A DNA stretch of 64,000 nt, taken from NCBI GenBank assembly GCA_965655095.1, contig OZ296649.1, positions 72,850,001-72,914,000 of the forward strand. The letters run 5' to 3'. Source of the stretch: Haplodiscus bocki (lineage: Eukaryota). A program made the position numbers and the translations under genes. This document shows, one piece after another, positions 20,570 through 58,735 of the stretch. The notes beneath the pieces are model-generated. The model was not told where the DNA came from. It saw only the letters and a list, made by a program, of their open reading frames with translations, and did no database searches. Numbering within the stretch: position 1 is the first letter of the stretch; each line of letters opens with the position of its first letter.

Positions 20570-20619
20570 CTTCTTTCACAAGTTTTTCTAATCGACACCC
20601 CATCAAAAACAAGGTCACT

Positions 20620-22270: not shown

Positions 22271-22300
22271 TGATGAAAAGAGGCTCCGGCAATATCCACA

Positions 22301-24260: not shown

Positions 24261-24289
24261 TTTTGTAAAAAATAATTTAGCTTTTGAAT

Positions 24290-25012: not shown

Positions 25013-25013
25013 T

Positions 25014-33299: not shown

Positions 33300-33920
33300 T
33301 TTAACAATCGCTTGTTTTCGTTCTTTGGATTTTATCTTGAATAGCTCTCGAAATGCGCGGGGCGATTGTTGGGGTTTTAAATTTGCTATTTCTTGGCGTT
33401 GAAAAGGGGGATATCTCTATTGAAAAACAAATTTGCAAAAAGAAGAAACGGCTTTAATTATTTCGTGCAATGTTAAGCAAAAACAGTACAAAATTACAGC
33501 AAAAGAGAGTCACTTACATTTGGCTGATTTATTGTTGAATGATTCTGATCTTTTATTTTCGGTTTCTCCAAGTTGGGTGGTTTCGCGTGCAGGTGTACTT
33601 TTTGTCAGACAGATGCTTTTTTCATAAATACTACATTAATTTTAGAATAATATTTGCGGTAGAGGCAGGTGAAAAGATTTTACAACAAGCGTATAATAAT
33701 AAAGTATACGAGTACTGTGAAAAAAAATATTATTTGCAGGTGAATGTAATATTATTTTACTGCAAAATAGATACAAAAGAAAAAAAAGCACACGCACACT
33801 TAATCAGTTCAGGTGCACTATTGGGACCTGGGACATATTACTCATATTACTCAGCTACAAGTCTTTCAGTTATTGTAACGCAAATGTATTTTTTTTGTTT
33901 TTGTTTTTTTAGTTGTTATA
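33300..33920 (-). repeat. 3' LTR of element A
   Basis: Direct repeat of 44971-45591 (about 20 differences by eye); sense termini TATAAC...TGTTAAA. Confidence 0.93.
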
Positions 33921-33966
33921 TTGGCCCATTTCATCTGGATTCTGTCCGCACAATAGAAACGACTTA

Positions 33967-34943: not shown

Positions 34944-35023
34944 CTGAAACAGAAAAAATGAGCACACCTACCGGTGCAAAAAAAGACAAGAAAACGACCA
35001 GGAAAAAAAGACACACAAAAAAA

Positions 35024-35185
35024 GGTGACACGGAAACATGTCTCAAAGGCTCTGATTGAGGGAACTCAAACAGGAAGGAGTAGCTTAGGTAATAGGCGGC
35101 AACGTACGGAAACGCACGTTGAAAGACACTAGCAAAGCTAGGGAAAAACATCAACAGGGTTGAGGAAGTAGCACGGAAACGTGCT
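35024..35185 (-). promoter_or_regulatory. Three UUUC-tetraloop hairpins (putative cis-acting RNA element)
   Basis: Sense strand AGCACG-TTTC-CGTGCT, AACGTGCG-TTTC-CGTACGTT and GACATG-TTTC-CGTGTC. Confidence 0.7.
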
Positions 35186-35378
35186 TAATGACACCAACAA
35201 AAGTTGGGAAAAATAGTGTATGAGCATAAGTCATGTTTTTGGAGGAAATTGTACGGACACGTACAAAAAAAGACATCAACCGAAGTTGAGTAAAACCGTA
35301 GGTGAGCTAAAATGAAGGATGACATGTGTGACAGTATGATGAAAGTTGAATGCATGCATAAAACAAAAATAAACAGTT

Positions 35379-37863: not shown

Positions 37864-39864
37864 AGTTTTGGCTTTGTTTTGCCCTCACGATTGGGGGAAT
37901 TGAAATCCGTAAGATTTGTCGGCAAGTTTGACATTAATAGGGGTTGTGCTCGACGCTGTTGCATCGTCGATGCTCTCAACGTTCGATGTTCTGGTGGTGT
38001 TTGTGAAGCAACGCGAAGCTTCGCGGCGGCTTCATCGATGATTTTTCGTTTGCGAGAACGTCCACCAGGTCGGCTTGTTGGGGTGCTGGGGGAAAACGTT
38101 TTGTTTGACAGTCTTTGAGAAACAGGTGAGCTGGAAGGAATACTAGTTCGATTTTCGATGGATGTTGAAGTCGACGTTGGCGTGATTGGTGTGGTTTGTG
38201 CTGAATTTTGGCCGTACGGGAGTGTCGAGGCAGGTGTGTGTGGGACTGTGACTGTCCCCATCGAGGGTGTTGGTATCGCAGGTATAGGACAAGGTTTTGC
38301 GAGGTTACCACCTGAAGAAGACGTTGCTATTGAAGGTGAAAACTGTTGAAGTAACGGTAAAGATGACCACTCGGTGCAGTAGGTATGATGGATGTCGTTC
38401 TGAGGAGTTGAAGGCCTAGGCGTCCGATTTCGAGTTGGTACATTGGAAGTTGAAGTCGCAGGCTCAGGAGTTTTCTCTCTGGTCGGGATGTTCGTTGTGG
38501 GGGGTCTCCTTCGGAATGGTTTCAAACGATCGTAATGTACCACGGATTCTTTTCCTGTACTGACTTCATTGATTTGATAATTTACGTCATTCAAGCATTT
38601 CAGTATAGTGTAAGGACCACGCCATGGGCTAAAAAACTCGGGACTTTGGCCAATCGGTACCACTGGCGTATGTAAAAGCACTTCTTGTCCGTCTCGGTAG
38701 ATGGGGCCATGTACCTTGTGATTATATATGGCGTTACGCCGTCGCTGATTCTTGTTAAGGTTGTCGCGGACCAACGCAAATGCTAGCTGAAAAGCTTGTT
38801 TTCTCTGATGGACAAACTCATGAACATTATTTGTACAATCGGATTCTGGGCTCGGGAACATGAGATCAAAAGGTAATGAAGTTTCTCGACCATGCACCAA
38901 GAATTGTGGGGTGCATCCTGTGGATTCATGCACCGAGGATCGATATGCCATCATGACGTAAGGGAGTTGTTGTGACCAGTTGTTTTGCTCTGCGTTTATG
39001 CACTTCGCCAGCATGTTTTGGAAGGTGCAGTTCATACGCTCAATGACCGCATTAGACTGATGGTGGAAGGCTGTCGTACGAGACTTGTCTATCCCGAGAA
39101 GAGATAGTAGGTTCTTGAAAAGTAGAGTTTCAAAATTGCGTCCTTGATCACTGTGTATGCTATGTGGACAACCGAAGCGACTAATCCAATGTTCTATCAA
39201 TGCAGTGGCAGTTGTTGATGCCCTCTGGTCCGGTAGTGGTACAGCTTCATACCATTTAGTGAAGTAATCGCCAATCAAGAGGATGACTTTGTGTCCGTTG
39301 GATTCCGGTAACGGTCCCATGAAGTCAATGCCAATGTGGTGGAAGGGATAGCTAGCTTTCCAATCTACAAGAGCATGGCGATGTGTTTTTGGTGGGTTGC
39401 TTCTTTTTCGACAATGGGGACAACGACTGATAAAAAGTTTCACATCTTCTTGGAAACCGGGCCAATAAAATCTTTGCCTAATTTTTTCGGTAACCTTGGC
39501 TACACCTAAGTGTCCACCAGTTGAAGTCGAGTGAGTGGATCTCAAAAGTTCCTCTACCAAACTCTGCGGAACTATTTGTTGAAGAAAAGAAACGCGATCG
39601 TCTGTGGGGTCAAATTTACGAGAAAGTACTCCGTCGGAGATACAAAGGCTGCTAAATTGATTGTAAAGTTGCCAAGCTAGCCGTGGACTACCCTGGAGGT
39701 CGTTGTTTCTTGGTACACGTGACTGTCGAACCCAATCTTTGACCAACTTCAATGATTCGTCTCCATCTTGCGCAATTCGGATATTTTTAGTGAATGAGGT
39801 GTTCGCATGATCAGTCACACTGTTATTGGGGGCGTCTTGTAACTCCGTGGAGTCCAACATATAC

Positions 39865-40275
39865 ACTGTGAGGCGTATTTGCGAAGTTGCGAACTCCTCC
39901 TTTAATACTTTGCGGACTAGGTGCCATTCTAGTTGGTCGACACCACAACCAAGTTTGGGCATGCTGATTGCTTTGACATCATTGTCTTCCGCATGACGTC
40001 GAAGAGCCGCTAGAGACGTTCACAAGGAGCAATATGTTGGTTTGTGGAAAAATTGAAACTTGGTTAGTAGATGGTAGATGTATCGTTGACTTGACTCTAG
40101 AAACTGTGGCCAAAGTGATTTTTGATTCGGAGTGCCAAACTTTGGGTAGTTTGTCGGTTACTTTCGTCGAAAGGTACGGGCGATTCCAGCACTCATCTTG
40201 AAGTCCGAGGAGACACAGTGAGCAAGAGAATCGCTGGAGCTGAAGATATCGTCAACTTTTTCATGGTACCCGAAG
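39865..40275 (-). other. TARG1/OARD1 (Poa1p-like) macrodomain within Pol A
   Basis: DDIFSSSDSLAHCVSSDFKMSAGIARTFRRK...RYIYHLLTK..FFHKPTY...ISMPKLGCGVDQLEW (with two in-frame stops). Confidence 0.88.
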
Positions 40276-42664
40276 GTTTCAACTTCAGTGTACGGATTAG
40301 CCGAGGAAGACGGTTTCCGTGGCTGCGGAGCTTATTGGGGGGTAGTAAGGACTTCAGTTGGTAGCGTGTTAGGGTCAATTCCTGGTTTGGCATTGGGCCA
40401 TTCATCTTCCACCGTTGGCTTGACTTCTGAAAGATCAACCACTTTGGGATCGTGGTGAACTATCAGCACTTCAGCTTGAGGAATGCGGGACAATCCATCG
40501 GCATGTCCAATTGATTTTCCCGGTTTGTGTCGGACCTCGTAGTCAAAGGCGGCCAGTTTCCCGAGCCACCGTGCGGTTAAGCCATCAGGGTCTTTGAAGT
40601 TGTGCAGCCACTGAAGTGCTCGGTGATCCGTAACGATAGTAAACTTGCGACGCAAAAGATAATGTCGAAAATGGCGTGTGAAGTGGACAATTGCCAAAAG
40701 CTCCCGCTTGGTTGCAGAATATCTGGTTTGAGCTTTCGAGAAAGCCGTAGAAGCGTAGCAAATGGCACGTTCTTTGCCATTTTGAACCTGAGCGAGAACA
40801 GCGCCCATTGCAGTCAAGCTTGCGTCTGTGTACAAAATAAAAGGTTCTTTCATTGATGGGAAAGCTAAAATGGGAGTCGTTAGGAGGCGTGCTTGAAGAG
40901 TTTCGAAGGCTGTCTGTGCCTCAGGTGTCCAGCCGAAGGAAGGACTGGACTCGGTTAATTTGTGGAGTGGTCGAGCAATCTCGGCAAAGTTTTCAATATA
41001 ACGGCGGTAATATGAGCAAAGACCCAGAAACGACTTTACTTCTGTTTGACTGGTGGGGATAGGGAATTTTTTTACTGGAGCGATTTTTTCGGGATCTACT
41101 TGTAGACCATCGGCGCTGAGGACATGTCCCAAAAGTGGACTTTTGTTTTGAAGAACTCGCATTTCAGTGGATTTATTTTGAGATTTGCTTCACGAAATCG
41201 TTGGAGTACGACTCGAAGTCTTTCTAAATGCTCCTCAGGGGTTGCGGCAAAGATGATACAATCGTCCAGGTAAGGGACAGTGCTCTTCCACGTCAGACCT
41301 ACAAGGACATGTTCAATTAAACTTTGGAAAGTGTTGGGACTTCCCGTGAGACCCATAGGCATGCGGAGCCATTTGTAAGAGCCAAAAGGGGTGCTAAACG
41401 CTGTGAAGTCTTGGCTCTTTTCCTCCATTGGTAACTGATAAAAGCCCCAGGACATATCAATTGTCGAAAAGAAAGCACTTCCTTCTAATGTGTCGAATAT
41501 TTCTTCAATGGACGGTATGGGCCAACAGGACTTGATGGTTTGTTGATTCAGTTGTCTGTAGTCTATTACTAATCTGAACTTGCCATTTTTCTTTGGGACC
41601 AGCATGGCTGGTGCGCTATACGGACTATGACACGGCGTTATAAGTTCTTTGTCAAGAAACGCGTCTATCTTTTCTCGTAGATCTTGCTTGTAGTGGAGAG
41701 GTAATCTTCGATTCGGTAGTTTGACGGGCTTTGAACCCGGGTAAACATCAGTCTTATGACTTGTGGCATCGCACTCCCCGATGTCCCATTGATTTTTTGA
41801 AAAAACATCTGCGAATTGTTGCATAAGTTCGGCGAATTTATGCCTCATTTTGATGGGTATCGCCGGACTGATTGAGTCTATAACGTGCTTGAGGTCATAC
41901 GACTCATCAATTTCACCTGTTTTTGACTTCGGTGGTGGGGAAACTATGCGGTTCAACGCTTGTTTTGGAAAGATTCAGAGGTACCCAATGTTGTGTTTTC
42001 GTACACCGTAATTACTTCATCCCCGGTATTTTCAATTGTGACCGGTACATTTTCTTCTGCGAAGTTGAAAAGGACGCTGGGGACCACAGCGTTTTTCAAA
42101 GTACTTATTCGTTCCACCGGCTCAAATAGAGCGGGCATTTCCATCAATGGTCGTTGCCATTCTTGTATTCTGGCTGGCAAAATCATGGCATATCCAGCCG
42201 GCACGGAGACTGTTTCCGTCGCTATCACCCGAAAAACTGTGTTCACTTCGTGATTGAGTTTACGGTTATACAATGGTACATGATTCTTGGAATCCAAGCG
42301 AAGCAGATCTTTGGAAAACAAGGCGTCGCATTTGTTAGTCCTCAGGAAGTTGAGTCCCACTAGACACTCTGCTTCCGAATCGATGAGCACGTGAAATTCG
42401 TGCTCGTAGTGTTTAGGACCGATGGTGATCGGTGGGCGAACTGTTCCTCTTGAAGAAATTGGCAGCTTATTTGGAGCCACGAGTTTGGTTTCCGTCGGTA
42501 AAAGTTTCAATTCACCCAATTTTTGGAGCCTATCAAAAACTACTGAGCTGAGGCAAGACACACTTGCTCCACTGTTGCAGACTGCCTCGATGGTTTTACC
42601 GAAAACAGTCAATTTTAGAAACACACTCCTGTGGTCAACCACGGAATTGAGTGTTTGAATTTGT

Positions 42665-42726
42665 GGGCCTATCGTGGTGGTCTTGTCTGCGCGGCGACCC
42701 GTGGGCGTAGACTTTTCTAGTTTAAA
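42665..42726 (-). promoter_or_regulatory. gag-pol -1 ribosomal frameshift signal (UUUAAAC plus H-type pseudoknot)
   Basis: T TTA AAC directly before the gag TAG; 7-nt spacer; stem GTCTACGC/GCGCAGAC; loop GGGTC pairs with downstream GGCCC. The -1 frame is open into the protease. Confidence 0.85.
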
Positions 42727-43874
42727 GAATCATTTCTTTTGGACCTGCAGTCTCTTTGGAAATGACCGGGTTTCAGGCAATTGAAACAAGCCTTGCAGTC
42801 TTTGGAAACATGGTTTGTTCTTTTGCAATGCTTACATGCGCTCTTGTTACTGTCGTGTTCATTGCGCTTCTTGCGCTGGCTACTTGAACCATTGTCCCGA
42901 TTTTGGTTATCAGACCTGCGAAAGTTCGTCCTTCCCCGTTCTTGGGGAGATTGGAACCTAACAGAGCGAGTGCTACTTCTAGAATCATTGCTGAGTGAAT
43001 GTAACCGCTTCATGTTCTTAATCTCATTGGAGCCTGGTTGCACTTGGGTACTTTGCAACTGTGAATTTTGCAAACTTTGGCTCAACAAGCGGACAAGTTC
43101 TTCCAAAGTTTCGTTTGATGTACCCTGTGCTACTCGGTTAACACTTTGTGTGACTGCGGAATTTCCGTTCTCAATTTCTAAAAACGCGTTGAGCTCCATT
43201 GAGGCAGTTAAGGCGTCGTCCGCTGTTTGGGGTTTCGCTTTCCGCAGTTCCCACCGCAGGGTTTTGTCGCTGAGTCCTTCTACAAACGTGGTCAAGACCA
43301 TTGGGTCTATCATTTCAGGAAAATCACGATAGGCACGCCTGGCAAGGGTGCGGACATCGCAGAGGAACCCTGCGATATCTTGCTTTAGTTGCTGCTTCGC
43401 AGCCTCAAGACGTGCTTTCAAAATGTCGCCATTAGTTGTGTAATTCTGTCGGAACGCCACAATCAACAAGTCAAAATTTGTCTGTTGTTCGAACGATAGT
43501 GTTGTGTAGAAGTGAGGGGCGTTTTCCTTCAGGCGAAGAGCAAAGTAATGCGGTCGGTTGACATGAGTGTTGGAGTGCCATCCTGACAAGAGGGCGGCTG
43601 TGTTGAACTGTTGCAAATAATCTTCAAAATCGCTTGTGCCCGTGAAGGACTCAGGCATTAGGCATGAAGGGAGTGGAGTGACGTATGGGAAGCCTCGTCC
43701 TCCTTGTGGACTGCCTGGCATTGCAAAGAAATTTGCACCGGTGGCGGTTGAATTCTGGGTGTTCATTAACCCGCTGGCTTGGTGATTACTTCCGACAGAG
43801 TTACCTGGATTCGTCTGAGAATGTTGTTGTCCTTTTTGGTTAGTAGGAGTCGTTGGAGGAGGTGAGTTTGACAT
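42717..43874 (-). CDS. gag: Gag with two tandem CCHC zinc knuckles
   Basis: Capsid-like region (PESFTG..FEDYLQQF) and CKHCKRTNHVSKDC-KA-CFNCLKPGHFQRDC. Confidence 0.93.
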   Translation of the reverse strand: MSNSPPPTTPTNQKGQQHSQTNPGNSVGSNHQASGLMNTQNSTATGANFFAMPGSPQGGRGFPYVTPLPSCLMPESFTGTSDFEDYLQQFNTAALLSGWHSNTHVNRPHYFALRLKENAPHFYTTLSFEQQTNFDLLIVAFRQNYTTNGDILKARLEAAKQQLKQDIAGFLCDVRTLARRAYRDFPEMIDPMVLTTFVEGLSDKTLRWELRKAKPQTADDALTASMELNAFLEIENGNSAVTQSVNRVAQGTSNETLEELVRLLSQSLQNSQLQSTQVQPGSNEIKNMKRLHSLSNDSRSSTRSVRFQSPQERGRTNFRRSDNQNRDNGSSSQRKKRNEHDSNKSACKHCKRTNHVSKDCKACFNCLKPGHFQRDCRSKRNDSLN

Positions 43875-43909
43875 TTTTATCTCTATTTCTCGTTACAAAA
43901 AAAAATTTT

Positions 43910-44302
43910 TTAGAGTCGGTTCATGCTTCTTGAGGTGGAGTTTATGGGAGCACACTCAGGAAAACCCAAAAAGGATGGATTTGACACATGTAGAGAAAGG
44001 AATTCAATGTGCGAACGCCAAATGTTTGCTAAGTGGGGAAAGAAATGCGCAGACGTTGATTTTACACTAGAAGTTTGAGTGCTGGGAAGAAAAGGGAGCT
44101 GAGGTTGTCCAGTCAGATGTTTCCAATGATGAATTGCTTCCAAGCGAAGATGAATACTCATTTGATGAGGTGTGAACAGAAAATCTGGTAGTTGCGACAA
44201 AGGAATTTTGAAAAACTTTGCTTGGCAAAAGTAATACGGTATAATGTATGTTTCACGAACGGCATTCGAAAACACGGACACAGGAATGCAGAAAGTGAAC
44301 AT
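43910..44302 (-). CDS. Upstream ORF2 of element A (unknown function)
   Basis: Same position as, and aligns with, 47423..47791 (PYYFCQ/PCFFCQ; IHHWKH/IHDTEH; HLANIW/RLARKW). Confidence 0.55.
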   Translation of the reverse strand: MFTFCIPVSVFSNAVRETYIIPYYFCQAKFFKIPLSQLPDFLFTPHQMSIHLRLEAIHHWKHLTGQPQLPFLPSTQTSSVKSTSAHFFPHLANIWRSHIEFLSLHVSNPSFLGFPECAPINSTSRSMNRL

Positions 44303-44335
44303 TTTTCGTGACTAATATTATTTTTTAAAAAAGGT

Positions 44336-44590
44336 TTAATCACTTTTTGAGGTTTGAATGCTTTGACAAGTAACGTTTACACGGTTTACTTCGTACGAAA
44401 GACCGCAAAGCGCTAGGACGATCATCAGCAGCGCGAAAGTTTGGACGATAAACAAAAAAGTCAAAAAACAGATAGAAAACAACGGTCTGGAACGGGCTTC
44501 ATCGTAAGAAGGCGGCGGACCGATCGGTCGGGGGTTTTCATGCGGTAAGACGTACAAGGGCAGATGCGAATGAGGGTGAGAACACGGCAT
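44336..44590 (-). CDS. Upstream ORF1 of element A: PPxY-motif single-pass membrane microprotein
   Basis: HLPLY...PPPSY then a long hydrophobic helix and RVNVTC; homologous to 47105..47356. Confidence 0.7.
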   Translation of the reverse strand: MPCSHPHSHLPLYVLPHENPRPIGPPPSYDEARSRPLFSICFLTFLFIVQTFALLMIVLALCGLSYEVNRVNVTCQSIQTSKSD

Positions 44591-44951
44591 TTACAAAACT
44601 TCACGAAAACGCAATCAAAAAACCAAAAATATCAGAAAAAGAAATTTCGTTTTACCTAAGTACTCACGTGTGTGTCCTATTGCTTAGGGGAATGAAGGAT
44701 ACCGGGTCAGCTTCGCCAAGACTCGCATAAACGCGGGAGAGATGCCAAGAACACGCCGAAGCGGTAAGGACACAGCAAAAGCTGGAAAACTAGGCACGGA
44801 CTAGGTCCGGAGAAAGAGATCTTATCGGCATCACTGGAAAACAATGAACAGGCCAAAGAGAGCTCTACAAGGGAAAATGGGTCTGGGCCGGACAAATAAT
44901 TGGGGAACTAAGTGAATTTTACGATTTTAGAGAGAAATTTTCAACAGAGAT

Positions 44952-44969
44952 ATCCCACTCCTGTCACCA
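44952..44969 (-). promoter_or_regulatory. Primer-binding site, tRNA-Leu type
   Basis: TGGTGACAGGAGTGGGAT one base after the 5' LTR; complementary to a tRNA-Leu-like 3' end (ATCCCACTCCTGTCACCA). Confidence 0.85.
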
Positions 44970-44970
44970 T

Positions 44971-45591
44971 TTTAACAATCCCTTGTTTTCATTCTTTGGA
45001 TTTTATCTTGAAAAGCTCTCGAAATGCGCGGGGCGATTGTTGGGGTTTTATATTTGCTATTTCTTGGCGTTGAAAAGGTGGATATCTCTATTGAAAAACA
45101 AATTTGCAAAAAGAAGAAACGGCTTTAATTATTTCGTGCAATGTTAAGCAAAAACAGTACAAAATTACAGCAGGAGAGAGTCACTTACATTTGGCTGATT
45201 TATTGTTGAATGATTCTGCTCTTTTATTTTCGGTTTCTCCAAGCTGGGTGGTTTCGGGTGCAGGTGTACTTTTTGTCAGACAGATGCTTTTTTCATAAAT
45301 ACTACATTAATTTTAGAAAAATATTTGCGGTAGAGGCAGGTGAAAAGAATTTACAACAAGCGTATAATAATAAAGTATACGAGTACTGTGAAAAATAATA
45401 TTATTTGCAGGTGAATGTAGTATTATTTTACTGCAAAATAGATACAAAAGAAAGAAAAAGAACACGCACATTTAATCAGTTCAGGTGCACTATTGGGACT
45501 TGGGACATATTACTCATATTACTCAGCTACAAGTCTTTCAGTTATTGTAACGCAAATGTATTTTTTTGTTTTTGTTTTTTTAATTGTTATA
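44971..45591 (-). repeat. 5' LTR of element A (contains AT|GTAAGT donor at 45190-45183)
   Basis: Direct repeat of 33300-33920, adjacent to the PBS. Confidence 0.93.
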
Positions 45592-45991: not shown

Positions 45992-46705
45992 TGTAGCGGC
46001 CCTGTATGAACCTGTACGAACATTTTGCAAGCAAATACTTGTCATCCACTTCAGATTAATATTGTCATCTTTTGTCCCCCAGCCCCATAAACAGGCCTCC
46101 TTTAAAACAATCATGTCTCAGCTTTGTATTCAATTAGCCAAGTAAACCCACACTTGAAGTGGCAATCTATCCTATCATAAACCGTCATTTTCATATGTTA
46201 TATTATATTCCAGTCTTAACTTGTTGATTTTCACATGCATCTAAACTTAAAACTAGACCTCAATTTGTAAACTTTCATGTTAATCTAAACCTGAAACAAA
46301 CTTGTAAATTATCTTAAAAACGTGAATCCCCCAACATTCTGCTGTTAATTGTAATCCTGTTTAAAACTTGAATATTCACGAATTCGAAACAAGAAAAAGA
46401 AGCAAAAACAGAAAAATTAGCGATCATTGGAACACTGAAACGAAACAAGAGGAAGCTGCTCGCCAGAGAAGACACAAGAAAGAAAAACTCTGAACAACTG
46501 TGATATTCTGCTGATCATCACTAATGTAAGTGATTTCTATTAAACATTAAAGTAAATTCAATCTTAAAGCAAAATTAGATTTTCTCTTGGAACAATCCCA
46601 AAAGAGTACCTAACACATACAACCGTCCTCGCATCCGAAGTTTTGAAAGAAATGAAAACCCTAAACTCTTGTTGCCAATTTTCCAATAAAATCACGGTTG
46701 TTAAA
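45992..46705 (+). repeat. 5' LTR of element B (AT|GTAAGT donor at 46524-46531; AATAAA at 46685)
   Basis: TGTAGC...TGTTAAA; about 6 differences from the 3' LTR by eye. Confidence 0.95.
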
Positions 46706-46706
46706 G

Positions 46707-46724
46707 TGGTGACAAGGGTGGGAT
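46707..46724 (+). promoter_or_regulatory. Primer-binding site, tRNA-Leu type
   Basis: TGGTGACAAGGGTGGGAT one base after the LTR. Confidence 0.85.
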
Positions 46725-47104
46725 TGTTTTAAGCAAATTAAGTTAAAATTTCTTAACTTAGCGTGATCGTAGCTTTCCAAAAACTGCCTTAAGACCTCTT
46801 TCCCGGGACTTGTCCCGCGCTAACGCTATTTTGTGCTCCACTAGCGAAAACCACTGTAGACGGCAGCTAAGGCCCATAGGTAGGAAAATTGAAATGAGCA
46901 CGGGCAATTAGGAAATTGGAATTATATAAAACGAACTACTCTTCATTACGGTTAGTTTAGTTCTTCATTGAATGATTAACTTGTAGATAACCTAAAATAC
47001 TAATTTTAGATTGTTTTCTCTAACTCTTTTCATAAATAACGCAAATTTTTTTTAATAAAATGACCTGTTTCCAAAGAAGTTTCTCCTTTTTCAAAATTTT
47101 CTAA

Positions 47105-47356
47105 ATGTTCCCTAACCATACTAATCAACTGCCCCTATACCTTTTCAACCAAAACCACGCCGTTGACCCCCCACCCCGTTATTCACGAAGCGACTCCAGG
47201 AGACTACGCCACGATAGCAGCTCTGTTTTCGTCTGTGCGCTTTTCGCATTCTGTGTACTAGCACTCCTCTTTTTGATAGTAATAAGATTAGTCCTCGTGC
47301 GCATACAATTAGATCACGTAGTAGCCAGTTGCACAGCCACTCCGCAAACAAACTGA
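47105..47356 (+). CDS. Upstream ORF1 of element B: PPxY-motif single-pass membrane microprotein
   Basis: QLPLY...DPPPRY then VFVCALFAFCVLALLFLIVIRLVLV and HVVASC. Confidence 0.7.
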   Translation: MFPNHTNQLPLYLFNQNHAVDPPPRYSRSDSRRLRHDSSSVFVCALFAFCVLALLFLIVIRLVLVRIQLDHVVASCTATPQTN

Positions 47357-47422
47357 AGAATTCCTAACAGCACCACAGTGGAAGTCGACTGTTTTTTTCT
47401 TTCCTTTTGATCCCAACACTCA

Positions 47423-47791
47423 ATGCACTCTTTCGTTTCCAAATCAGAAGCCAAATTCTTAGACCCCCAGCATACCCCCACCCAATACCCGTGTTTCTTC
47501 TGTCAAGTCGAATCGTTCGGACTCTTTCAACATTTAGAGAAATATTCTGACCATGCCTGTCAATTTTCACCTCAATTGTCTTTATTCTACTTAACTCTGC
47601 TGCAAATCCACGATACCGAACATAGTACTAACGCTGCTGTCCCAAAGCTTTCAAGTAGAAAACAATTATCGAGAGTGCGTCCCAAATCACTGTTTTATTT
47701 TCGATTAGCTAGAAAGTGGGTAGAAAACTTGCAAATTACTGAAGCCTATTTGATAAATCTGTACCTCAAAAGTGAGAAAACTGAAAGTTGA
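47423..47791 (+). CDS. Upstream ORF2 of element B (CxxC...HxxxH, unknown function)
   Basis: Homologous and syntenic with 43910..44302. Confidence 0.55.
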   Translation: MHSFVSKSEAKFLDPQHTPTQYPCFFCQVESFGLFQHLEKYSDHACQFSPQLSLFYLTLLQIHDTEHSTNAAVPKLSSRKQLSRVRPKSLFYFRLARKWVENLQITEAYLINLYLKSEKTES

Positions 47792-47865
47792 ACTACAATG
47801 TACACCAGTCCTTTAAATTCGCACCTTTCTAACAATAAAAACGATGACGCCGACTGCTAATCATA

Positions 47866-49284
47866 ATGACTGAATTGGAAGAAGTAAATAACCTCGAAGT
47901 CAACGAACTTGAAGAAAGAGACGCAGACGCGTCAAGGAGATCTCGAATAACAAACTCAAATGACCCTCATTCAACCCCGGGAGTTGATGCGCGACACGGA
48001 GCAAGTGGATCCGCATCGGCCGGACCTCGTTTTTCAACACTGTTGGGCAACGGCGCAGTCCCAACGGCCCAGACGGGACTTGGTGGTTTCTACTTGAACC
48101 CTCCCAGTACCCTTCCGTCATGCTTGATGCCTGACTCATTCACTGGATCCGGAGACTTTGAAGATTATCTCCAACAAATTAACACCGCAGCAATGCTCTC
48201 GGGATGGCACTCCTCCCGACACGACCATCGTCCCCAATATTTTGCACTTCGATTGAGGGACAACGCACTTCATTTTTACACCACATTGTCAACCGAACAA
48301 CAAAACGATTTTGACCTCCTTGTAGACGCTTTCAGACAAAATTACACAACAAATGTGGACATTTTGAAAGCACGATTAAAAGCTGCGAAACAGCAACCAA
48401 GTCAAGACATAGCAACTTTCCTTTGTGATATTCGAACTTTGGCGCGCCGAGCATACCGTGCCCATCCACATTTGATAGACCAAATCGTCCTTAACAGTTT
48501 CATTGAGGGATTGCAAAGTTCTACTCTCAGATGGGAACTGAGAAAAACGAAGCCGTCGACAGCCGATGAAGCCCTGACACTGGCCATTGAATTAGATTCG
48601 TTTCTTGCTTTGGAGCGCCAGAATAATGCTCCGACCAAATTCTCGTTCCCGAGCAGTGTTAATTCAATCGCAGCCAACACTTCGCAACCGGACCCTATGG
48701 ACGACTTCGTTAAAAGTCTCAGAAATGAAATTGATGAATTGAAATCATCAATCCACAGAAAACAAAACTCGCCTGAAAGAAGTCGGAATCAGTACCGCAC
48801 TAGTGACCCCAATTGGAACAGAAGCGGTTCCTTTGAACAGAAACATTATCGACAAAATTTCGAAAGAAGAAACGACGAACGGAGATCCGACAAATATGAC
48901 AACAGAAGTAAATCACGAGACAGAACAGCAAACAGGACAGTTCACCACAATGACCGAAGCACCTCGTATGACAGACAAAATGGTTTCAAAATCCGATCGG
49001 TTCGATTCGAAGAGGACTGCGGATTCACAGACAACAATCAACGACTTCATAGACACAATCCACCCCTGCGCTATAATACACAAAACATGACTGCCGGAAA
49101 TACCCAGCCAATTCCTTACAATCGCAACAAAACACCTCCCAGATACCAACCCCAAAACCAAGTATGTAGACGTTGTAAACGAAGAAACCATGCATCTCAT
49201 GAGTGTCAAGCCTGTTTTGATTGCCTTCGTGTTGGACATTTCCGAAAAGACTGTCCTATGCAACGATCCAACCCGGAAAACTAA
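47866..49284 (+). CDS. gag: Gag with two tandem CCHC zinc knuckles
   Basis: Intact 472-aa ORF; capsid-like region close to Gag A; CRRCKRRNHASHEC-QA-CFDCLRVGHFRKDC. Confidence 0.93.
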   Translation: MTELEEVNNLEVNELEERDADASRRSRITNSNDPHSTPGVDARHGASGSASAGPRFSTLLGNGAVPTAQTGLGGFYLNPPSTLPSCLMPDSFTGSGDFEDYLQQINTAAMLSGWHSSRHDHRPQYFALRLRDNALHFYTTLSTEQQNDFDLLVDAFRQNYTTNVDILKARLKAAKQQPSQDIATFLCDIRTLARRAYRAHPHLIDQIVLNSFIEGLQSSTLRWELRKTKPSTADEALTLAIELDSFLALERQNNAPTKFSFPSSVNSIAANTSQPDPMDDFVKSLRNEIDELKSSIHRKQNSPERSRNQYRTSDPNWNRSGSFEQKHYRQNFERRNDERRSDKYDNRSKSRDRTANRTVHHNDRSTSYDRQNGFKIRSVRFEEDCGFTDNNQRLHRHNPPLRYNTQNMTAGNTQPIPYNRNKTPPRYQPQNQVCRRCKRRNHASHECQACFDCLRVGHFRKDCPMQRSNPEN

Positions 49285-49336
49285 AACAGTCTACGCAAAA
49301 GGGTCTTGGCGCAGACTTTAACACTAAAAAGGGCCC
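49275..49336 (+). promoter_or_regulatory. gag-pol -1 frameshift signal (G GAA AAC plus pseudoknot)
   Basis: GGAAAAC then TAA; 7-nt spacer; GTCTACGC (49289) / GCGCAGAC (49309) stem; GGGTC loop pairs with GGGCCC (49331). Same structure as in element A. Confidence 0.8.
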
Positions 49337-51734
49337 ACAACGAACTTTTGGATTAAACTCGGTGGTCGACTCGCGCAGTGTTTTTGTACAACTGAAAATT
49401 TTAGACAAAACAGTGGAAGCAGTATGCGATTGTGGAGCAAGTGTATCTTGTGTGAGCTCTGAGATTTACAATGAACTGAAAAAAACTTATCAAATAACGT
49501 TGAAAAACTGCACCAGAAGCCTGAGAGCGGCAAATGGACTGCCGATTGATGTGAAAGGCATCATCAGAGTACCAGTATATGTGGGGAATAAATTATTCCA
49601 TCACGAATTTCGAGTCTTGGAAAAAGCACAAGCTGACTGTCTTTTAGGTCTGGATTTCTTAGAACGCCATAAATGCGACCCCTTGTTTTCACGAATGGAG
49701 TTAAAACTGGACTCAACCCATGCTGTCCCCCTCTATCACAAAAACTTTGAAAGTGACCACAATGCTATCTTTCGAGTCGTTGCGACCGAAACCATTAAAG
49801 TACCATCAGGCCACGCAACAATTCTTCCAGCACACATCCCAAATTGGAAGAGACCATTTTTCCATCTAAATGCTGTTTTTGAACCTTTGGAGAAATTCAC
49901 TATGAGTGAAGACATCTCAGCTCCCAACATACTTTTTGATTTTTCTGACGAGATGATCCCTGTCATAATGACTAACACAACGGACTCCGAGATCACGATT
50001 TTCAAAATTACAACTCTTGGGTCATCCGAACTTGTATCTGATGAGATTATCAATTTTGTTAGTCGCCCATTGCTAGCCTCCAGCGCACCTCCGGCTGCAG
50101 GATCGGTACAAAACCGGATAGAGTCCTCGAGAAACGACTTGCAAACAGTGATCACCTCAGTTGATCCAACCATTCACCGACAATACCATCAACAATTTGC
50201 TGCACTCTTCAAAGAATTCATGCACGTTTTTTCGTCCTCAGAATGGGACTTAGGTAAGTGCGACGCTACCAGTCACAAAATTGATGTACACCCGGGTTCG
50301 AAACCGATCAAAATTCCTAATCGCCGAATGCCATTGCACTATAAAGAATATTTGCAGTCCAAACGATGTCTTTTTGGAAAAAGACCTGATCGCTCCTTGT
50401 CACAGTCCTTACAGTTCTCCTGCTATGTTAGTGCCAAAGAAAAATGGAAAGTTGCGTCTTGTTATTGATTACCGCCAACTCAACAAGCAGACTGTTAAAT
50501 CCAGTTGGCCGATCCCGTCTATTGAGGAAATCTTCGACACACTGGGCAGAAGTTGTTATTTTTCTACAATTGATATGTCCGCTGGATTTTATCAGGTTCC
50601 CATGCACAGAGACAGCCAAGATTACACTGCATTTAGCACCCCCTTTGGGTCGTTCAAATGGCTGCGAATGCCGATGGGACTAACCGGGAGCCCGAACACT
50701 TTTCAAGGCCTAATGGAACATGTCCTTACTGGCCTTACTTGGAAAACTTGTGTGCCCTATCTCGACGATAGCATCATCTTCTCTACTACCCCAGAGGAAC
50801 ACCTCTCACGTTTACGCCAAGTGTTTCAACGTTTCCAACAGGCTAACTTGAAAATCAATCCTTCGAAATGTGCTTTCTTTCAAACGAAGGTACAATTCCT
50901 TGGGCACATTGTCAGTAAAGATGGACTTCAAGTGGACCCCGAGAAAATCAATGCAGTACTTAAGTTTCCTACGCCCACCAACCAGACACACGTGAAGTCC
51001 TTTTTGGGCTTAGCTTCTTACTATCGCCGCTATGTCAAGGATTTCGCCGAAATCGCTCGACCTTTACACAGAGCAAGTGAAACCTCTTCTGAGTTTCAAT
51101 GGAATGAAGCGGCACAAAATTCTTTTGACTCGTTAAAACATCGTTTGACGACCACTCCAATTTTAGCATACCCGTCACTTCAAAAGCCATTCGTGTTATA
51201 TACAGACGCCAGCCAGCTTGCAATGGGCGCTGTTTTGGCTCAGGAACACGATGGTCTGGAAAGAGCGATCTGTTACGCATCCAAGGCTCTCTCCAAGACC
51301 CAGAGCAAGTACTCAACAATACGCCGTGAGCTTTTGGCCATTGTGACATCCACCCGTCACTTCAGACATTACTTACTGGGACGCCAGTTTACCATTGTAA
51401 CGGATCACCGAGCACTCCAATGGTTGCACAATTTCAAAGATCCTGATAGCATAACTGCCCGTTGGTTGGAAAAGTTGGCGCCTTTTGATTACGATGTTCG
51501 ACATCGTCCAGGAAAGTCAATTGGACATGCTGATGGACTGTCACGAATTCCATCGTCCGTCAATGCAGTAGCAGAAACAAACAACCCTTCATTCCCGTTT
51601 GAAGAACATCTGGGACCCGATGGCTCACCCACCCACCTAACGCCAGCGACAGACGGTAGTTACTATTCTGACCAACATCACATTGATTCTCCCACGGCGA
51701 GTGCCGCGGCACAACAGCAAGATGCAGCAATCGG

Positions 51735-52150
51735 AATTTACCGTGAAACCATCGGAAACCTTTTCGATACCCAAGATTCTTTTGGCCACTGTGTGTCCGC
51801 TGACTTCAAGCTGTCGGCCGGTATTGCGAGAAAAATCCGCCGTAACTACCCTTGTACTTATCGAGCCGGTTGGAATCACAGTACGAATCCCCTTTGGCCA
51901 CAATGGTTGCCTGAATCCAAACGATACATCTACCATCTAGTCACAAAACAGAAGTTCTATCAGAAACCAACTTACGGAACTTTGCGTGCTTCCTTGGAAA
52001 GAATGCGATCGCATGCCGAGAACCATCGCGTTCGCAAAATTAGCTTGCCATGTATCGGATCTGGTCTCGACAAGCTCGAATGGGAGCAAGTACGCCAACT
52101 GATTCGGGAAGTTTTTCGTACTTCCCCTGTTCAAATCACAGTTTTTTTGA
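51735..52150 (+). other. TARG1/OARD1 (Poa1p-like) macrodomain within Pol B
   Basis: IGNLFDTQDSFGHCVSADFKLSAGIARKIR...RYIYHLVTKQKFYQKPTYGTLRASL...ISLPCIGSGLDKLEWEQVRQLIREVF; in frame with RT-RH and IN. Confidence 0.92.
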
Positions 52151-54123
52151 AAGCTTCAGTAGACCCTACGGAGAACGACTGTAACTCCAATTTCAATGAC
52201 AACGCATTGGCACAGGCACAGGAAGCTGATGAAAGCTTACACCAGGTTCGGAAAAGGATTCGAAGCAAACGTGTACACAAAAATGATGAACTGCAAGGAC
52301 TTCCTCGTTTGGGATGGCAAATGTTCAACCAATTATCTAGTCTTCACATCAAAAACAACGTGCTTTGTCGGAAGTTTGAACCACTCGACGGAAATTTGCC
52401 CTTCTTACAACGGATTGTCCTGCACTCCATGGTACCAGAAATTTTGACGGCTTTGCACAGTTCTAAAACCGCTGGTCATTTGGTCACGCACAAAGTCATT
52501 GAAAAAGTGCGTCAACGTTTCTACTGGCCTGAATTTAAGGAAGATGTCAAGCAATTCATACTATGTTGCGATGCCTGTCAAAAGAAGTCTGGACCCCCAA
52601 AGACTAACCGCCATTCCTTAGTTGACTGAAAGATCAGCTACTCCTTCCACCACATTGGTCTCGACTTTCTTGGCCCACTTCCCCTTTCTAATGGCAACCG
52701 CTTTATTCTTGTGATTGGCGACCATTTCACCAAATGGTACGAGGCGATACCTCTGCCGGACCAGCAAGCTTTCACTACTGCCGATGCGCTACTTGAACAC
52801 TGGATTTGCCGTTTTGGATGCCCTAATAGCATTCACACGGACCAAGGCCGTAATTTCGAATCAGCCTTGTTTTAACGCCTGATGACATTGCTCGAAATCA
52901 ATAAGACACGGACTACTTCTTTCCACCCACAGTCAAACTCAGTCATTGAGCGCATGAACCGTACATTACTGAATATGCTCACCAAAAGTATCGACAAACA
53001 ACAAGCTAACTGGTCTTATTTCCTTCCCTTCGTCCTCATGGCCTATCGGTCCTCCGTACACGAATCAACCGGTTTCACTCCGAACCGACTTGGACATGAG
53101 GTTTTGTTTCCTCTCGACTTGATGTATCCGCCTCCCGAAAGCAACGTCCCCACTAACATCAATGAATATGTGATGACACAACAACGGAAATTTCAACAAG
53201 CTTTCGAACTAGTTCGGCGAAATACTACGGCTCAACAACGCCGTCGCAACGCTCTTTACAACAGGAAAGTCCACGGCCCCACATACCGTGCGAACGAATT
53301 TGTCCTTCTCCACTACGATGTCACTGTTACTGGACAAAGTCCGAAACTATCCAGCCCCTGGCGCGGCCCCTACCGCATTTTGAAGTGTATCAACGACGTT
53401 AACTACAAAATTGAAGAACTCTCCACTGGCAAACAGCAAATTGTTCTTTATGATCGCCTCAAACGATACCATGGAACTCCCCCTCTCTCAACGCCAATAC
53501 CGACACGACAATCAGCTCCTGGACCTGCTCAGCAGACGACATCACACCCCTCCTCGACGACCGTCAATCACGATGACTGCGTTGTCTCGTTTATACCTCC
53601 TCCTAATCTCTTTGCTCCCTCACGTGGTTTAGCCACCCGCTTCCAATCCCCACAGACACCACCCCACCCAGAAATGTCACCGTTGATTCTCATGTCACAA
53701 AACCTCTTTCAGCGAGTATAAATGCCTCGACACTTCCCTACGATTTAACGTCTAGCTCCTTGCCATCTCAACCCTCCCTTCCTTGCCATAGTACTACCCC
53801 TTCCAATCAACCCAGGACCCTTCCGTTTGCCAACTCCACGCCTACGAGATCCCCTTCTTCCCGGTGGAGAATATTGTTCGCCGCGCTGCTCGCGAGCTAC
53901 ACAACCGCAGTCCCTCCAACAAACGTACCCTCCGACCTAGCACAGTGACTCAACGAAAGACACAGCCTCTTTTCCGCTCTCGCTTACCCCGCGATCTGAC
54001 GGATTTCCTTTCTCCTCGGAGGCTGACAAAAACAAAGCCTCCTGCTCTGTCTAACCAGCACTAGTACTCTGTCCCAGCCAATACATCAACGCCGAATGAT
54101 TGTATGGTCTTCTCTTTATTTAG

Positions 54124-56488
54124 GAGACACCCCAGCTATATGACGTCAACAACCCCTTTCCTTTTTCTTCCTATTATATTCTCCCTTCTCAACTTCTCTG
54201 CTGTGGTACAGTTCACAACACATTTGAGCGATTCATTGGACGACCCTGTTTTCAAGAAAGGTGCTGCTTTTGTCTTTCAATTTCAGGACGTGACACCGGA
54301 AAGTGAGAGTAAGCTTCGTGTGTTCTCACCGTTACCCAGGATCCCTGATATTAATTTGACCAACGAGCATACGATCCTCCAAAAACGAGGACACTCCGAT
54401 ACCCTTGCAGGAATGACCTCGGTTAAGATGTGCGACACCGCCGACATGGAACACTTATATGACAACTTATTTAATCGACTCGAAGAAAAATTGAGAATTT
54501 TGGAAAACGAAATTCAGGCTGCTCAGACGGATCAACACAATTTGGTGACGATGGCTTCTTCCTTCTTACCGCCGTCGATGCACCCGCATGAAGCGCCATC
54601 ACGAAGCAAACGAGCCATTGGACTCATTGCAGCGGCTGCGGGAGCCGCGGGACTGGCTCTAGGTGACCCAGTCAAAGAGGCTGCATGTTCAGCGCTCTCT
54701 ATTTTTAACCTTTGTACGGATACTACAGATTTGCAAAACGATATTGACGGAATTTTAGCGACTCGAAATCAGTTTCAAGATGTTCTGCAACGCGTTCAAA
54801 CGAAAAACGATGAAAAATTTGTCTTGCTTGATAACGAAATCAAAGACACACAGGACAGTGTAGTCAAGATAACAAAACTCGTGGGCACACAGTTAAAGGC
54901 CCTGGAAACCGAATTGATGGAAATCAAGGGCGTGATAGCCACTTTCCGGTTTGTCATCGACAAATTATACACAGTATGTCTTTCTTGCAACAAATTCGAG
55001 ATTATATTGCCCATTTGGGAACACTGTACGCACATATTAAATCTTATAAAGCCGCTTTTTACGCCTACCAGATTGCGCTCTACTCCACGATTTCGTCACT
55101 GGCCGCTGGGTATGTCAGCCCTCAATTCCTCCTCCCTTCCCAACTGGCCTCCATTGTCAATGAGCTTGCCCATGACGAGATTCTCCATGGCACCAAACTC
55201 TCGCCTGCCATCCATGTGGGCCAGGAAGCCATTTACTATGAACTCCAGATGGTTTTAAAAGTTTCCCTTCTCCCCAAAGGTATTTCAGTTGTCCTTGGCG
55301 TCCCGATGAACTCAAAGCGCAATGTCTATCGCGCCATTCCCTTGTACCAGCCTAACGATGATGGCGATACCGCTTCCTTGTATCACTTCCCAAAACCTCT
55401 TCTAGCCATTTCTACTGACAATTCCCGTTTTGCTGAGCTCGATGCCGCCAGCCTTCAGCAGTGCTCTGGTAATAACCGCATTAAACTCTGTCGTCAAGGT
55501 TTTTCGACCACTACAGACGAAACCTTGCTTTGTTTACCTTCTTTATACTATAACTACGATATACCCGCTCCTCGTAACTGTAAAGTAGAATCTGTCCTTC
55601 TGCCTGACGCTCCCCAAGCTTTTTACTTGGCTGATGGTTTATATCATATTATATCTCGTGACCCTCACATACAGATGAAGAATGACAGTGGCTCTGACTT
55701 TTCTATTTCTACCTTATCTTGTAAAGCTTGCTTGATCCGCCCTAGCTGCAGTAGTACCCTCTCTTTCAATCAAGGTGATTTGGAGCTTCGCCCTGACCTC
55801 GATCTTCTGCAAAACCAAACCCGAACCCTTCTTGGCCAAAATACAGCTTACTCCTTCTCTTGATCAGATCTTTCAGCATGTTCCCCGCACCACCAGTAAC
55901 TTTCACACGTATTCTGTGACGGAAGCGCGTCACTCCGTCCTTAGCAGCGTTCGTTTGGAATTAGCTGAACTCCCTAATGTTAATGCAATGTCCAGCGACT
56001 CCGTTGCTGAGCTGACTAGACCAATCGCTCAATATTATTCTTCCGTCTCTCCGGCAACTTCTGCCGCCTTATCCTCTTATCTCCCCACCCGTACAGCTAT
56101 CTGTTTTTCCGTCGTCTCCATCACCATTTCTCTCCTGACATTCAGTATCAGTTTTACACTCTTCCGTCGCCAATGGAAACGTCTCTTTGCACACCCTCAA
56201 CGGTTTTTCCGTGGTACTTCTGGAAAGTTCTTGCACATCGTGAATGCCCATCCGACTTCACCTGACGCAGACTCTTCTTTCTTGTACCTTTCGGTGCAAG
56301 AGTTTCAGGCCTTGCAGGCTCTTGCCCATGCCACACTCCGTGACCAGACCCCACCTTTAGTCTCCACCAACCCTCCGGCTGCCGCCTTACCCACTCACCC
56401 TCCTACTAACTACTCTCACCCTAACCCCCCACTCACTAGTGTGTATCCTACTGTTACCGTCCCTCTGTACTCAGAAACTTCTACATAA
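54124..56488 (+). pseudogene. env: Envelope glycoprotein, class I fusion (F-type); two frameshifts
   Basis: Acceptor TCTCTTTATTTAG|G at 54123; signal peptide; RSKR followed by AIGLIAAAAGAAGLALG; Cys-rich region; TM helix (AICFSVVSITISLLTFSISFTLF). Confidence 0.9.
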
Positions 56489-56616
56489 CTTGTCATCTCT
56501 CCCGCGTATGTTATATATCTATATCTCTCTCTGTATCTATGTATCTGCATCTCTATCTCCTATTCCTTCTCTATATGTTCTTATGTATTCTCCTCACATC
56601 CTGAGCGATGCCTTCT

Positions 56617-56792
56617 AACGCGTTTCCGCGTTTCCTTTTTCCTCCTCCCGCGCTTGCGTGTGCGCGCCTTGGCATGTTTCCGTGCCTCGGGCTGGCGGTG
56701 CGCTCCGCCCCCACGAGTTACACTGTTCGACACGTTTCCGTGTTTCCCTGCACTAGCCGACTTCTCCTCTTTTCGTCATACGTTTCCGTATG
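56617..56792 (+). promoter_or_regulatory. Four UUUC-tetraloop hairpins (putative cis-acting RNA element)
   Basis: AACGCG-TTTC-CGCGTT, GGCATG-TTTC-CGTGCC, GACACG-TTTC-CGTGTT and CATACG-TTTC-CGTATG, at ~50-58-nt spacing. Confidence 0.75.
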
Positions 56793-56887
56793 CAGCCCCC
56801 CTTTTTTTCTCCTCTCTCGTTGTTTTTTTCTTAGTCGCCTTGTCACTTCTTTCCCTAACTATAATGTATCAAATTTTGTTGTTTCAG

Positions 56888-57879
56888 GTCTCACTTCAAC
56901 TTCTTCAGCACCCACCCTGCCCGCCGCCACCCTGTGTTAACAAGTTCTGGACGCATCCACCCTGTCGCAGTCGGTGACCATGTGTATCTAGTAGAGGACA
57001 TACAATATCGTGTCACCAAGTTGTCCCCCGACAGTGATTCTGTTTGTCTCCAGAAAATAAATTCGCGAGACCGTCCCTTCAAGCGTTCAATCCGCCAAAT
57101 CTGGTTGCCACCACCCATTACCTCTGAATCTTCTGCCTCCGCTGACCTCCCCACTGCAAACTGTTTCTGCCCAGAACCCTCGCCTCCTCCCGTTCTCCCC
57201 GACGTCATGGATACGTCCTTCCAAACTGACATGGACAAAGAGTCAGCTCTCAATGATTGGGTCACCGTCACTACCGACTTTACTTCTGTCACCCAACTGG
57301 ACAAAGCTTTCCAAGATGCCCGACGTGAGGCTGAAGTCTTTTACGATATGTACACTGAAGCGGATTTGGCTGCTGCCTCCGCCCGCAAGCAAATTGAACA
57401 CCTTACAGCCGAATCTCAACAGCTCCGTTCTTCCCTGGATGACTTGAACCGTACCCACAATAGCCTCATGGCTGACTCCCTCCGACATATCAAACGATAT
57501 CAGTTCCCTCCGCACTCAACTAACCTCTTTGGACGGCTCCCACACAAAAGCGTTAGCTTCTATGATCCAACATCATCTCTTATCTCTTCCCACCGATTTT
57601 AACGACCCTGCCACCCCGGATGACACACTTTATCATTTTCTCTGCTGTAACCCTTCCGCCGATATGTCCACCATTGTTCGTCATGCCAACACACTTCTGC
57701 GTTGCCTACATCCTGATAAAACTTCGCCCACTACCGACCACGCCGTAGCTGCCTCTCGTCTTGTTCCCCTCCTTACTAACATCAAACGTGTTTTAACACA
57801 TCCGGGCCTCCGCAAAGTGTATGACCACTGTGGTCTTCTTGGCTTCCGCCGCCTCTTGGACTCTTTCCTTCGTTGCTAA
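56888..57879 (+). pseudogene. Accessory ORF B: beta-rich domain, Pro-rich linker, coiled coil, HPD J-domain
   Basis: Branch point CTAAC (56855) and acceptor TTGTTGTTTCAG|G (56887). ORFs 56934..57602 and 57529..57879: DTLYHFLCCNPSADMSTIVRHANTLLRCLHPDK...KRVLTHPGLRKVYDHCG. Confidence 0.85.
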
Positions 57880-58008
57880 CGTTGCACCCCTTGAGACGCC
57901 GATGACAATTTCACCAAGCAAGGCCGATGCGAATTCCCACAACTCTTCATGCTCTTCTCCACATCTTGATGAATTCTTAATTACAATTGCGCGGACGCAA
58001 TTTCTCGT

Positions 58009-58021
58009 GAAAGGGAGTAGT
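58009..58021 (+). promoter_or_regulatory. Polypurine tract of element B
   Basis: GAAAGGGAGTAGT immediately before the 3' LTR. Confidence 0.7.
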
Positions 58022-58735
58022 TGTAGCGGCCCTGTATGAACCTGTACGAACATTTTGCAAGCAAATACTTGTCATCCACTTCAGATTAATATTGTCATCT
58101 TTTGTCCCCCAGCCCCATAAACAGGCCTCCTTCAAAACAATCATGTCTCAGCTTTGTATTCAATTAGCCAAGTAAACCCACACTTGAAGTGGCAATCTAT
58201 CTTATCATAAACCGTCATTTTCATATGTTATATTATATTCCAGTCTTAACTTGTTGATTTTCACATGCATCTAAACTTAAAACTAGACCTCAATTTGTAA
58301 ACTTTCATGTTAATCTAAACCTGAAACAAACTTGTAAATTATCTTAAAAACGTGAATGCCCCAACATTCTGCTGTTAATTGTAATCCTGTTTAAAACTTG
58401 AATATTCACGAATTCGAAACAAGAAAAAGAAGCAAAAACAGAAAAATTAGCGATCATTGGAACACTGAAACGAAACAAGAAGAAGCTGCTCGCCAGAGAA
58501 GACACAAGAAAGAAAAACTCTGAACAACTGTGATATTCTGCTGATCATCACTAATGTAAGTGATTTGTATTAAACATTAAAGTAAATTCAATCTTAAAGC
58601 AAAATTAGATTTTCTCTTAGAACAATCCCAAAAGAGTACCTAACACATACAACCGTCCTCGCATCCGAAGTTTTGAAAGAAATGAAAACCCTAAACTCTT
58701 GTTGCCAATTTTCCAATAAAATCACGGTTGTTAAA
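58022..58735 (+). repeat. 3' LTR of element B
   Basis: Direct repeat of 45992-46705. Confidence 0.95.

Follow-up and report, generated by a model that had tools for sequence, protein, structure and literature searches.

The stretch of DNA analysed here (the window, 64,000 nt of a Haplodiscus bocki contig, from a 1.5-Gb genome) contains two LTR elements in divergent orientation, of which B reads along the plus strand and A along the minus strand. Element B occupies positions 45992..58735 and carries gag, PR, RT, RH, Macro, IN, env and an accessory gene between LTRs (45992-46705 and 58022-58735) that are 99.2% alike. Element A (33300..45591) has the same layout, and its LTRs (44971-45591 and 33300-33920) are 96.8% alike. 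In both, the order gag-PR-RT-RH-IN between the LTRs is that of the Ty3/Gypsy elements. The Macro domain is situated within pol, in the interval between RNase H and integrase (50254-52629, plus strand; 37860-40019, minus strand), the LTR ends (46705, 45992, 45591, 44971) read TG/TA...TTAAA and not TG...CA, and element B has a 4-bp target duplication, AAAG. The env-like gene lies in three frames in copy B (54065..56488, plus strand) and in two in copy A (35379..37884, minus strand), and a relative, P0017, shows a weak match to Baculo_F (E=0.0019, below the cut-off). The accessory gene, split over two frames in either copy, encodes an SH3/KOW-like barrel, a coiled coil and a J-domain (B, 56888..57879, plus strand, DnaJ E=2.7e-4; A, 33967..34943, minus strand). 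Elsewhere in the window lie a degenerate tandem array with a period of ~1.03 kb (250-10100), a 102-bp tandem repeat (63194-63684) and, at 17558-29000, an A32-type ATPase, a protein-primed DNA polymerase B with endonuclease VII and a C2H2 zinc-finger ORF, remnants that we take to be Polinton/Maverick-like.

The gap between env and the accessory gene holds an array of short hairpins in both elements. The initial annotation had listed seven, four in B and three in A, and all of these are found with the stems it quoted; an eighth, in element A and with a UGUC loop, brings the window total to eight. The hairpins of element B lie on the plus strand at 56617..56632 (6 bp, UUUC loop; slot occupied in 18/31 subfamily copies), 56671..56686 (6 bp including a U-G pair; the best-conserved slot among the B-side subfamilies), 56729..56744 and 56777..56792. 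Those of element A lie on the minus strand at 35249..35266 (the added hairpin, 7 bp; slot occupied in 20/30 subfamily copies), 35170..35185, 35100..35121 (9 bp, one G-U pair) and 35027..35042 (one U-G pair). As had been claimed, each of the four pairs that depart from Watson-Crick is a G-U when read on the sense strand, although the terminal G-U of the third hairpin in B is atypical, this pair being G-C in 21/31 subfamily copies. A blastn comparison of the A and B gaps finds no similarity, in agreement with flanks described as not obviously conserved. The core RYG-TTTC-CGY occurs seven times in the 64 kb, counting both strands, always at the seven hairpin sites, and model R1, which was built from such hairpins, scores the eight at 21.7-25.9 bits and the next site in the window at 12.9. 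All six representative copies have 3-7 paired hairpins per gap, compared to shuffle means of 0.02-0.07 and a shuffle maximum of 1.

A first look at the genome with env gave 2526 candidates, and the family was surveyed in 249 copies, forming nine multi-copy subfamilies and five singletons. The survey left out 24 duplicate or unanchored loci and 12 loci without an env anchor, mostly upstream halves of whole elements; env clusters outside the sample include P0002, P0004, P0006, P0010 and P0011, and young copies are over-represented because the copies are mostly best hits. The array seen in the window, here termed type I, is carried by six subfamilies, G00 (element B), G01 (element A), G02, G03, G08 and G12, with at least three paired hairpins in 154 of their 184 copies. 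It consists of 4-6 slots, always in the sense orientation and about 80-400 nt (overall 80-480 nt) upstream of a predicted splice acceptor. The motif is a 5-6 bp stem with a G-C closing pair, and the UUUC loop, correct for the seven hairpins first described, widens family-wide to U-N-N-C (UUUC, UGUC, UAUC, UCUC, UUCC and UUAC were found). None of the 29 slot words departs from the closing G-C pair, from U1 and C4 of the loop or from the G that follows on the 3' side.

A search of the whole genome for doublets of the core finds 278, compared to 24 for a reversed control, and 647 compared to 29 when loop position 2 is left free and shorter spacing is allowed. On chromosome 1, the doublet rows of the relaxed pattern were merged by hand into 53 sites, 22 of which had already been assigned to env matches or loci. 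Among the other 31, the accessory N-domain follows 170-390 nt downstream on the same strand in 28, and env lies upstream in 27; the three left over lack an element gene, and two of these are in a short tandem repeat. Altogether, 50 of the 53 sites belong to the env-bearing Gypsy lineage, and the doublets are thus almost confined to the elements, not spread as the unrelated genome-wide DNA motif that the initial annotation had considered. The viral contigs searched contain no relatives of the lineage, and homologue searches with env and the accessory protein returned only homologues without a name. In the literature, covered at title and abstract level and mostly in open papers, no description of the lineage, the array or the J-domain accessory gene was found; the lineage treated in the available part of PMC12440569 is apparently a different one. 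The array is real, lineage-specific and undescribed in the literature searched.

Two further subfamilies, G11 and G13, form a sister clade in the midpoint-rooted RT, Gag, env and accessory trees, and their gaps contain no type I array. The same position between env and the accessory gene is taken by another array, type II, with about 9-10 hairpins in G11 and 5 in G13 (L158, L206). These hairpins have a variable loop, mostly a basal C-G pair, a 5' flank (U/A)C and a 3' flank AG; shuffles give 0.2-0.3 such hairpins, the type I subfamilies mostly none, and the two arrays are mutually exclusive. Type II stems and flanks are less variable than the loops and the remaining gap, which is partly by construction as the motif was defined on the same sequences, and the single-hairpin pattern is modestly enriched genome-wide (408 vs 155). 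In both array types, a U-C precedes a helix whose first pair is C-G, the partner G lying upstream, where it closes the loop, in type I and downstream in type II. Type II may accordingly be read as a circular permutation of type I, a relation that would argue for recognition of a folded single strand rather than of double-stranded DNA.

Evidence that the hairpin structure itself is maintained comes from seeds defined by the 8-base core only, which yield 21 distinct stems. Pairing by position is 21/21 at bp3, 20/21 at bp4, 18/21 at bp5 and 14/21 at bp6, and bp4-6 jointly are paired in 52/63 cases, where 20,000 shuffles average 39.3 and reach 49-50 at most, while the identical seed at other places (73 seeds) is 41-48% paired per position. 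In alignment A1, 82.8% of pairs form and the covariation score is 0.46, values each reached by 0/500 shuffles; two type-counting measures are unexceptional (267 and 114 of 500 shuffles). The covariation announced in the initial annotation is thus above shuffles, whose figures are not p-values because relatedness is ignored and some slots are orthologous between subfamilies. When the outer purine/pyrimidine of one hairpin pattern is left free, 97 of the first 100 of 404 genomic matches are Watson-Crick (67 A-U, 30 G-C), by a hand count over related copies. Furthermore, hairpin columns are 2-5 times less variable than the remaining gap in 5/6 subfamilies, G12 being too young for this comparison. 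A coding gap was considered and rejected, as the open sense frame of 23/31 G00 copies is found in only 0-10 of 10-37 copies in the other seven subfamilies; an antisense frame is open across the gap in 1/219. The nearly fixed CGY of the 3' arm could suggest a neutral short repeat or chance resemblance, or a binding site in double-stranded DNA, and because of it part of the pairing is sequence conservation. This explanation is nevertheless highly improbable in view of the compensatory outer pairs, the lower variation than in the flanks, the second array type, and retention across subfamilies whose env is only 45-75% alike. Taken together, the hairpins are under selection.

The strand on which the array acts is less clearly indicated. 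A strand-neutral search of 14 distinct fixed stems (70 pairs) finds seven fixed G-U against one A-C mismatch, two of the seven probably sharing one origin, whereas rare decay variants are symmetric (30 vs 27 in type I, 18 vs 17 in type II); for 7:1 against 30:27, Fisher p=0.065. Predicted folding does not tell the strands apart (0.74 for sense, 0.81 for antisense). The argument from G-U pairs made in the initial annotation is real, though modest, and folding energies give the sense strand no advantage. Decay of CpG is unlikely to be the main source of G-U pairs, with CpG o/e at 0.91-1.00 and strand-symmetric rare variants. A structure on the opposite strand, whether minus-strand cDNA or antisense RNA, or a DNA cruciform would agree with the equally high predicted antisense pairing and with the fact that all type I loops become GNNA when reverse-complemented. 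It is, however, quite improbable given the fixed mismatches and the variable type II loops, in which no GNNA appears. Action in sense RNA is thus modestly favoured from the pattern of substitutions.

A 6-bp stem with a 4-nt U-rich loop is also the geometry of the histone 3' stem-loop (RF00032), and the host has canonical, metazoan-type histone stem-loops. A large histone gene array with a period of ~4.6 kb and the UUUA stem-loop was observed in the genome (L286-L293; G000 C4 15.5-16.3 Mb, C37). A mimic that recruits SLBP or 3'hExo would share this geometry, but the host stem-loop closes with U-A, has the loop UUUA and starts with GGC, while the array closes with G-C (29/29) and also differs in its basal GG and flanks. 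Moreover, counting from the base, 10/29 stems have A-U as their second pair, whereas SLBP requires G7 (PMC10388802, in the part available). RF00032 matches three histone sites and 0/9 element loci, and the array is tandem and not at an RNA 3' end. On the closing pair, position 2 and the RF00032 result, identity with the histone stem-loop is rejected, and mimicry in the looser sense has hardly any likelihood left.

All eight subfamilies with an array have a conserved, open accessory ORF. The HPD motif is invariant in 19/19 accessory proteins, DnaJ matches are above the cut-off in two subfamilies, and the N-domain, which forms the barrel, has a dN/dS of 0.04-0.16 in 6/6 pairs; the accessory protein is under purifying selection. 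After the J-domain, at the C-terminus of alignment A3, a conserved CG is followed by a CxxC motif, possibly a zinc site. An AF2 model of the N-domain is a small beta barrel (pLDDT 76.5) that superimposes on Spt5 KOW domains with Z 7.5-8.0 and rmsd 2.0-2.4 over about 60 residues. The best matches are the KOW domains of Spt5/NusG, Spt5 KOW4 among them, tied with Tudor, BAH and chromo readers at Z <=8. Foldseek returned no E below 1e-3 for the barrel, and there was no Pfam KOW match for the N-domain and nothing informative in Pfam, PDB sequences, the ESM Atlas (best 0.80) or viral folds. Because of the tie with Tudor, BAH and chromo readers, the modelled barrel permits RNA binding and goes no further than that. 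A pattern scan finds NES-like strings in 15/19 accessory proteins, none of them common to all subfamilies.

The accessory ORF lacks an early ATG in most subfamilies, where it begins with a split codon at AG|G. The predicted acceptor, TTTCAG|G, lies at 56882..56888 in B (plus strand) and at 34943..34949 in A (minus strand), below the array in both, as the initial annotation had placed it. A matching candidate donor, AT|GTAAG, in the 5' LTR (46524..46530, plus strand, in B; 45184..45190, minus strand, in A) strengthens the predicted splicing and would provide the first two letters, AT, of the start codon of the accessory gene. The LTRs of G00, G01, G02, G03 and G08 each contain this string once, and G12 has it in the leader; no other GTRAG occurs in any of the five LTR sequences counted (with a chance of 0.035-0.052 for each), and the string is conserved though the LTRs are otherwise largely unalignable. 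The exon after the acceptor begins with G in an open frame, and the 10/25 G11 copies without this G have an ATG of their own. G11 has a weaker donor, AT|GTAAT; no AT|GTAAG donor was found for G13 and none with AT for G10, and a generic scoring of donors pointed to no consistent site near gag or env. Joining AT|GTAAG to AG|G would therefore remove the array from the accessory mRNA and keep it in genomic and env RNA. Contigs of unspecified kind from four sequence runs cover all 30 bins and have no GT..AG joint among 15 of their 68 joints, which speaks neither for nor against this splicing.

The subfamily G10, with at least 150 close copies the largest seen, departs from this arrangement. It carries at most one type I hairpin (0/25 copies have more), no type II array, and in 13/25 copies one hairpin ~42 nt upstream of its own acceptor. 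The coiled coil and J-domain are absent from 25/25 copies, a barrel-like match is kept in 6/25, and a RING-like zinc-finger ORF (zf-RING_4 E=2.5e-4) and a second ORF are present instead. Several 3' cassette variants occur in G10, and one or two hairpins with a UAGC loop are seen downstream of its env (L131-L155). In RT and Gag, G10 clusters with the type I clade; its env branch is a long one.

These relationships bear on a role in packaging or dimerisation, with Gag nucleocapsid reading the array. Dispersed small stem-loops are packaging signals in several RNA viruses, and the spliced accessory mRNA would not contain the array. A packaging signal should also be absent from env RNA and present in all replicating subfamilies, however, and the array, being downstream of env, would sit in env mRNA as well, while G10, with a Gag of the type I clade, is abundant without it, which argues against a packaging signal read by Gag. 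Across the switch from type I to type II, moreover, the Gag zinc knuckles remain 69% alike, and the 28 array-first loci include no amplified derivative with an internal deletion that has retained the array. Packaging is accordingly improbable. The broader proposal of the initial annotation, a multivalent structured element serving packaging, export, localisation or splice control, holds in so far as the array depends on structure, lies in a non-coding gap, is tied to the elements and falls in a predicted intron; packaging is the least likely of the options it offered.

The reading given the most weight, tentatively and with the chances leaning slightly against it, is that the array is a Rev/RRE-like response element bound by the accessory protein of the element itself. 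In its favour are the selected structure, the constant position, the arrangement of donor and acceptor motifs, the purifying selection on the protein, the KOW-like matches of its barrel and the joint absence of array, coiled coil and J-domain from G10 despite its type I Gag and RT. The clade with the alternative array, too, has a diverged barrel (28% identity between the clades) beside the similar Gag knuckles. Against it, the J-domain has diverged as much as the barrel (25%), and the G10 copies with a barrel-like match keep it without the array. The tie of the barrel fold with Tudor, BAH and chromo readers, the lack of a common NES-like motif, the gaps in the donor pattern (G13, G11) and the strand-neutral folding predictions also count against it. 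Phylogenetically, the loss in G10 and the switch of array type each amount to a single event, and since array and accessory gene adjoin, one cassette swap removes both together; G10 thus links the two by one event only, confounded by adjacency.

A factor of the host could do without any element protein, reading the array as an export signal of the CTE or RTE kind or as a splicing silencer or enhancer for the downstream acceptor. The position of the array matches that of 3' elements in simple retroviruses, and the U-C beside a C-G helix end common to both array types could be read by one host protein; if type II is a true permutation, a single constant host protein could read both arrays. The hairpin that G10 retains near its acceptor also fits, and CTEs are bound by host NXF1 (PMC5341730, available part). 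A host factor does not by itself explain, however, why the array was lost alongside the coiled coil and J-domain, and an Rfam search, which the initial annotation had suggested, returned no relevant match in the elements of the window (33000-59000, to E=10) or in nine family loci (E=5), and hence no sequence or structure match to known CTEs. This explanation comes second in weight and is somewhat unlikely.

If the element's own protein is the reader, the following course of events can be proposed. The accessory ATG would arise when the AT|GTAAG donor is spliced to AG|G; the array would go with the intron, and genomic and env RNAs would retain it. The SH3/KOW-like barrel would read U-C beside the helix end closed by C-G, the coiled coil would let the protein bridge several hairpins, and the J-domain would recruit Hsp70 to remodel the RNP, so that intron-retaining RNAs would be shielded from splicing and/or licensed for export. 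We infer the action at the RNA level, the splicing, the binding partner and the outcome; the likeness to Rev/RRE rests on structure at the DNA level, on position and on the predicted layout. The proposal in full, a Rev/RRE-like feedback in Ty3/Gypsy in which a KOW/coiled-coil/J-domain protein with a splice-made start binds the hairpin array and brings Hsp70, the motif having undergone a circular permutation between the sister clades in step with the divergence of the protein, is possible but on the doubtful side.

Retention or export of unspliced RNA beside spliced mRNAs is, for LTR retrotransposons, known mainly from vertebrate retroviruses. If the proposal is true, Rev-type logic would extend outside the Retroviridae, with an added step of Hsp70 recruitment. 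The system is unusually testable: the hairpin is 16 nt and the domain 60 residues long, a natural lineage lacks both, and the two motif types found in nature allow tests of cross-binding. If binding is specific, the system would also provide a compact new RNA-protein tag pair.

Among the known systems, the CTE of MPMV lies 3' of env, as does the array. Both have repeated units, which in the CTE are binding units, and would concern intron-retaining RNA, although for the array such action is predicted only (for MPMV, PMC5341730, in part); the CTE, an extended stem-loop of 150 nt, is bound by NXF1, whereas the array has no Rfam similarity and tracks a gene encoded by the element. In Drosophila gypsy, an errantivirus, the env ATG is likewise composed of a donor AT and an acceptor G (PMC2585583, available part), but the donor predicted here belongs to the LTR or the leader, and the ORF to be started from it would be a fourth, accessory one. 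Complex regulation of the Rev type is described for lenti-, delta- and some betaretroviruses in the available part of PMC5341730. Compared to HIV-1 Rev/RRE and the Rev-like systems of deltaretroviruses, MMTV, JSRV and HERV-K, the present elements are Ty3/Gypsy and not Retroviridae, have discrete 16-nt hairpins instead of one 350-nt fold, and encode a protein with an SH3/KOW-like barrel, coiled coil and J-domain and no common NES. What they would share with those systems, as far as the same partial source describes them, is a structured cis element in unspliced and env RNA, here predicted to be gone from the accessory mRNA, together with a small accessory protein with a likely oligomerising part, here the coiled coil.
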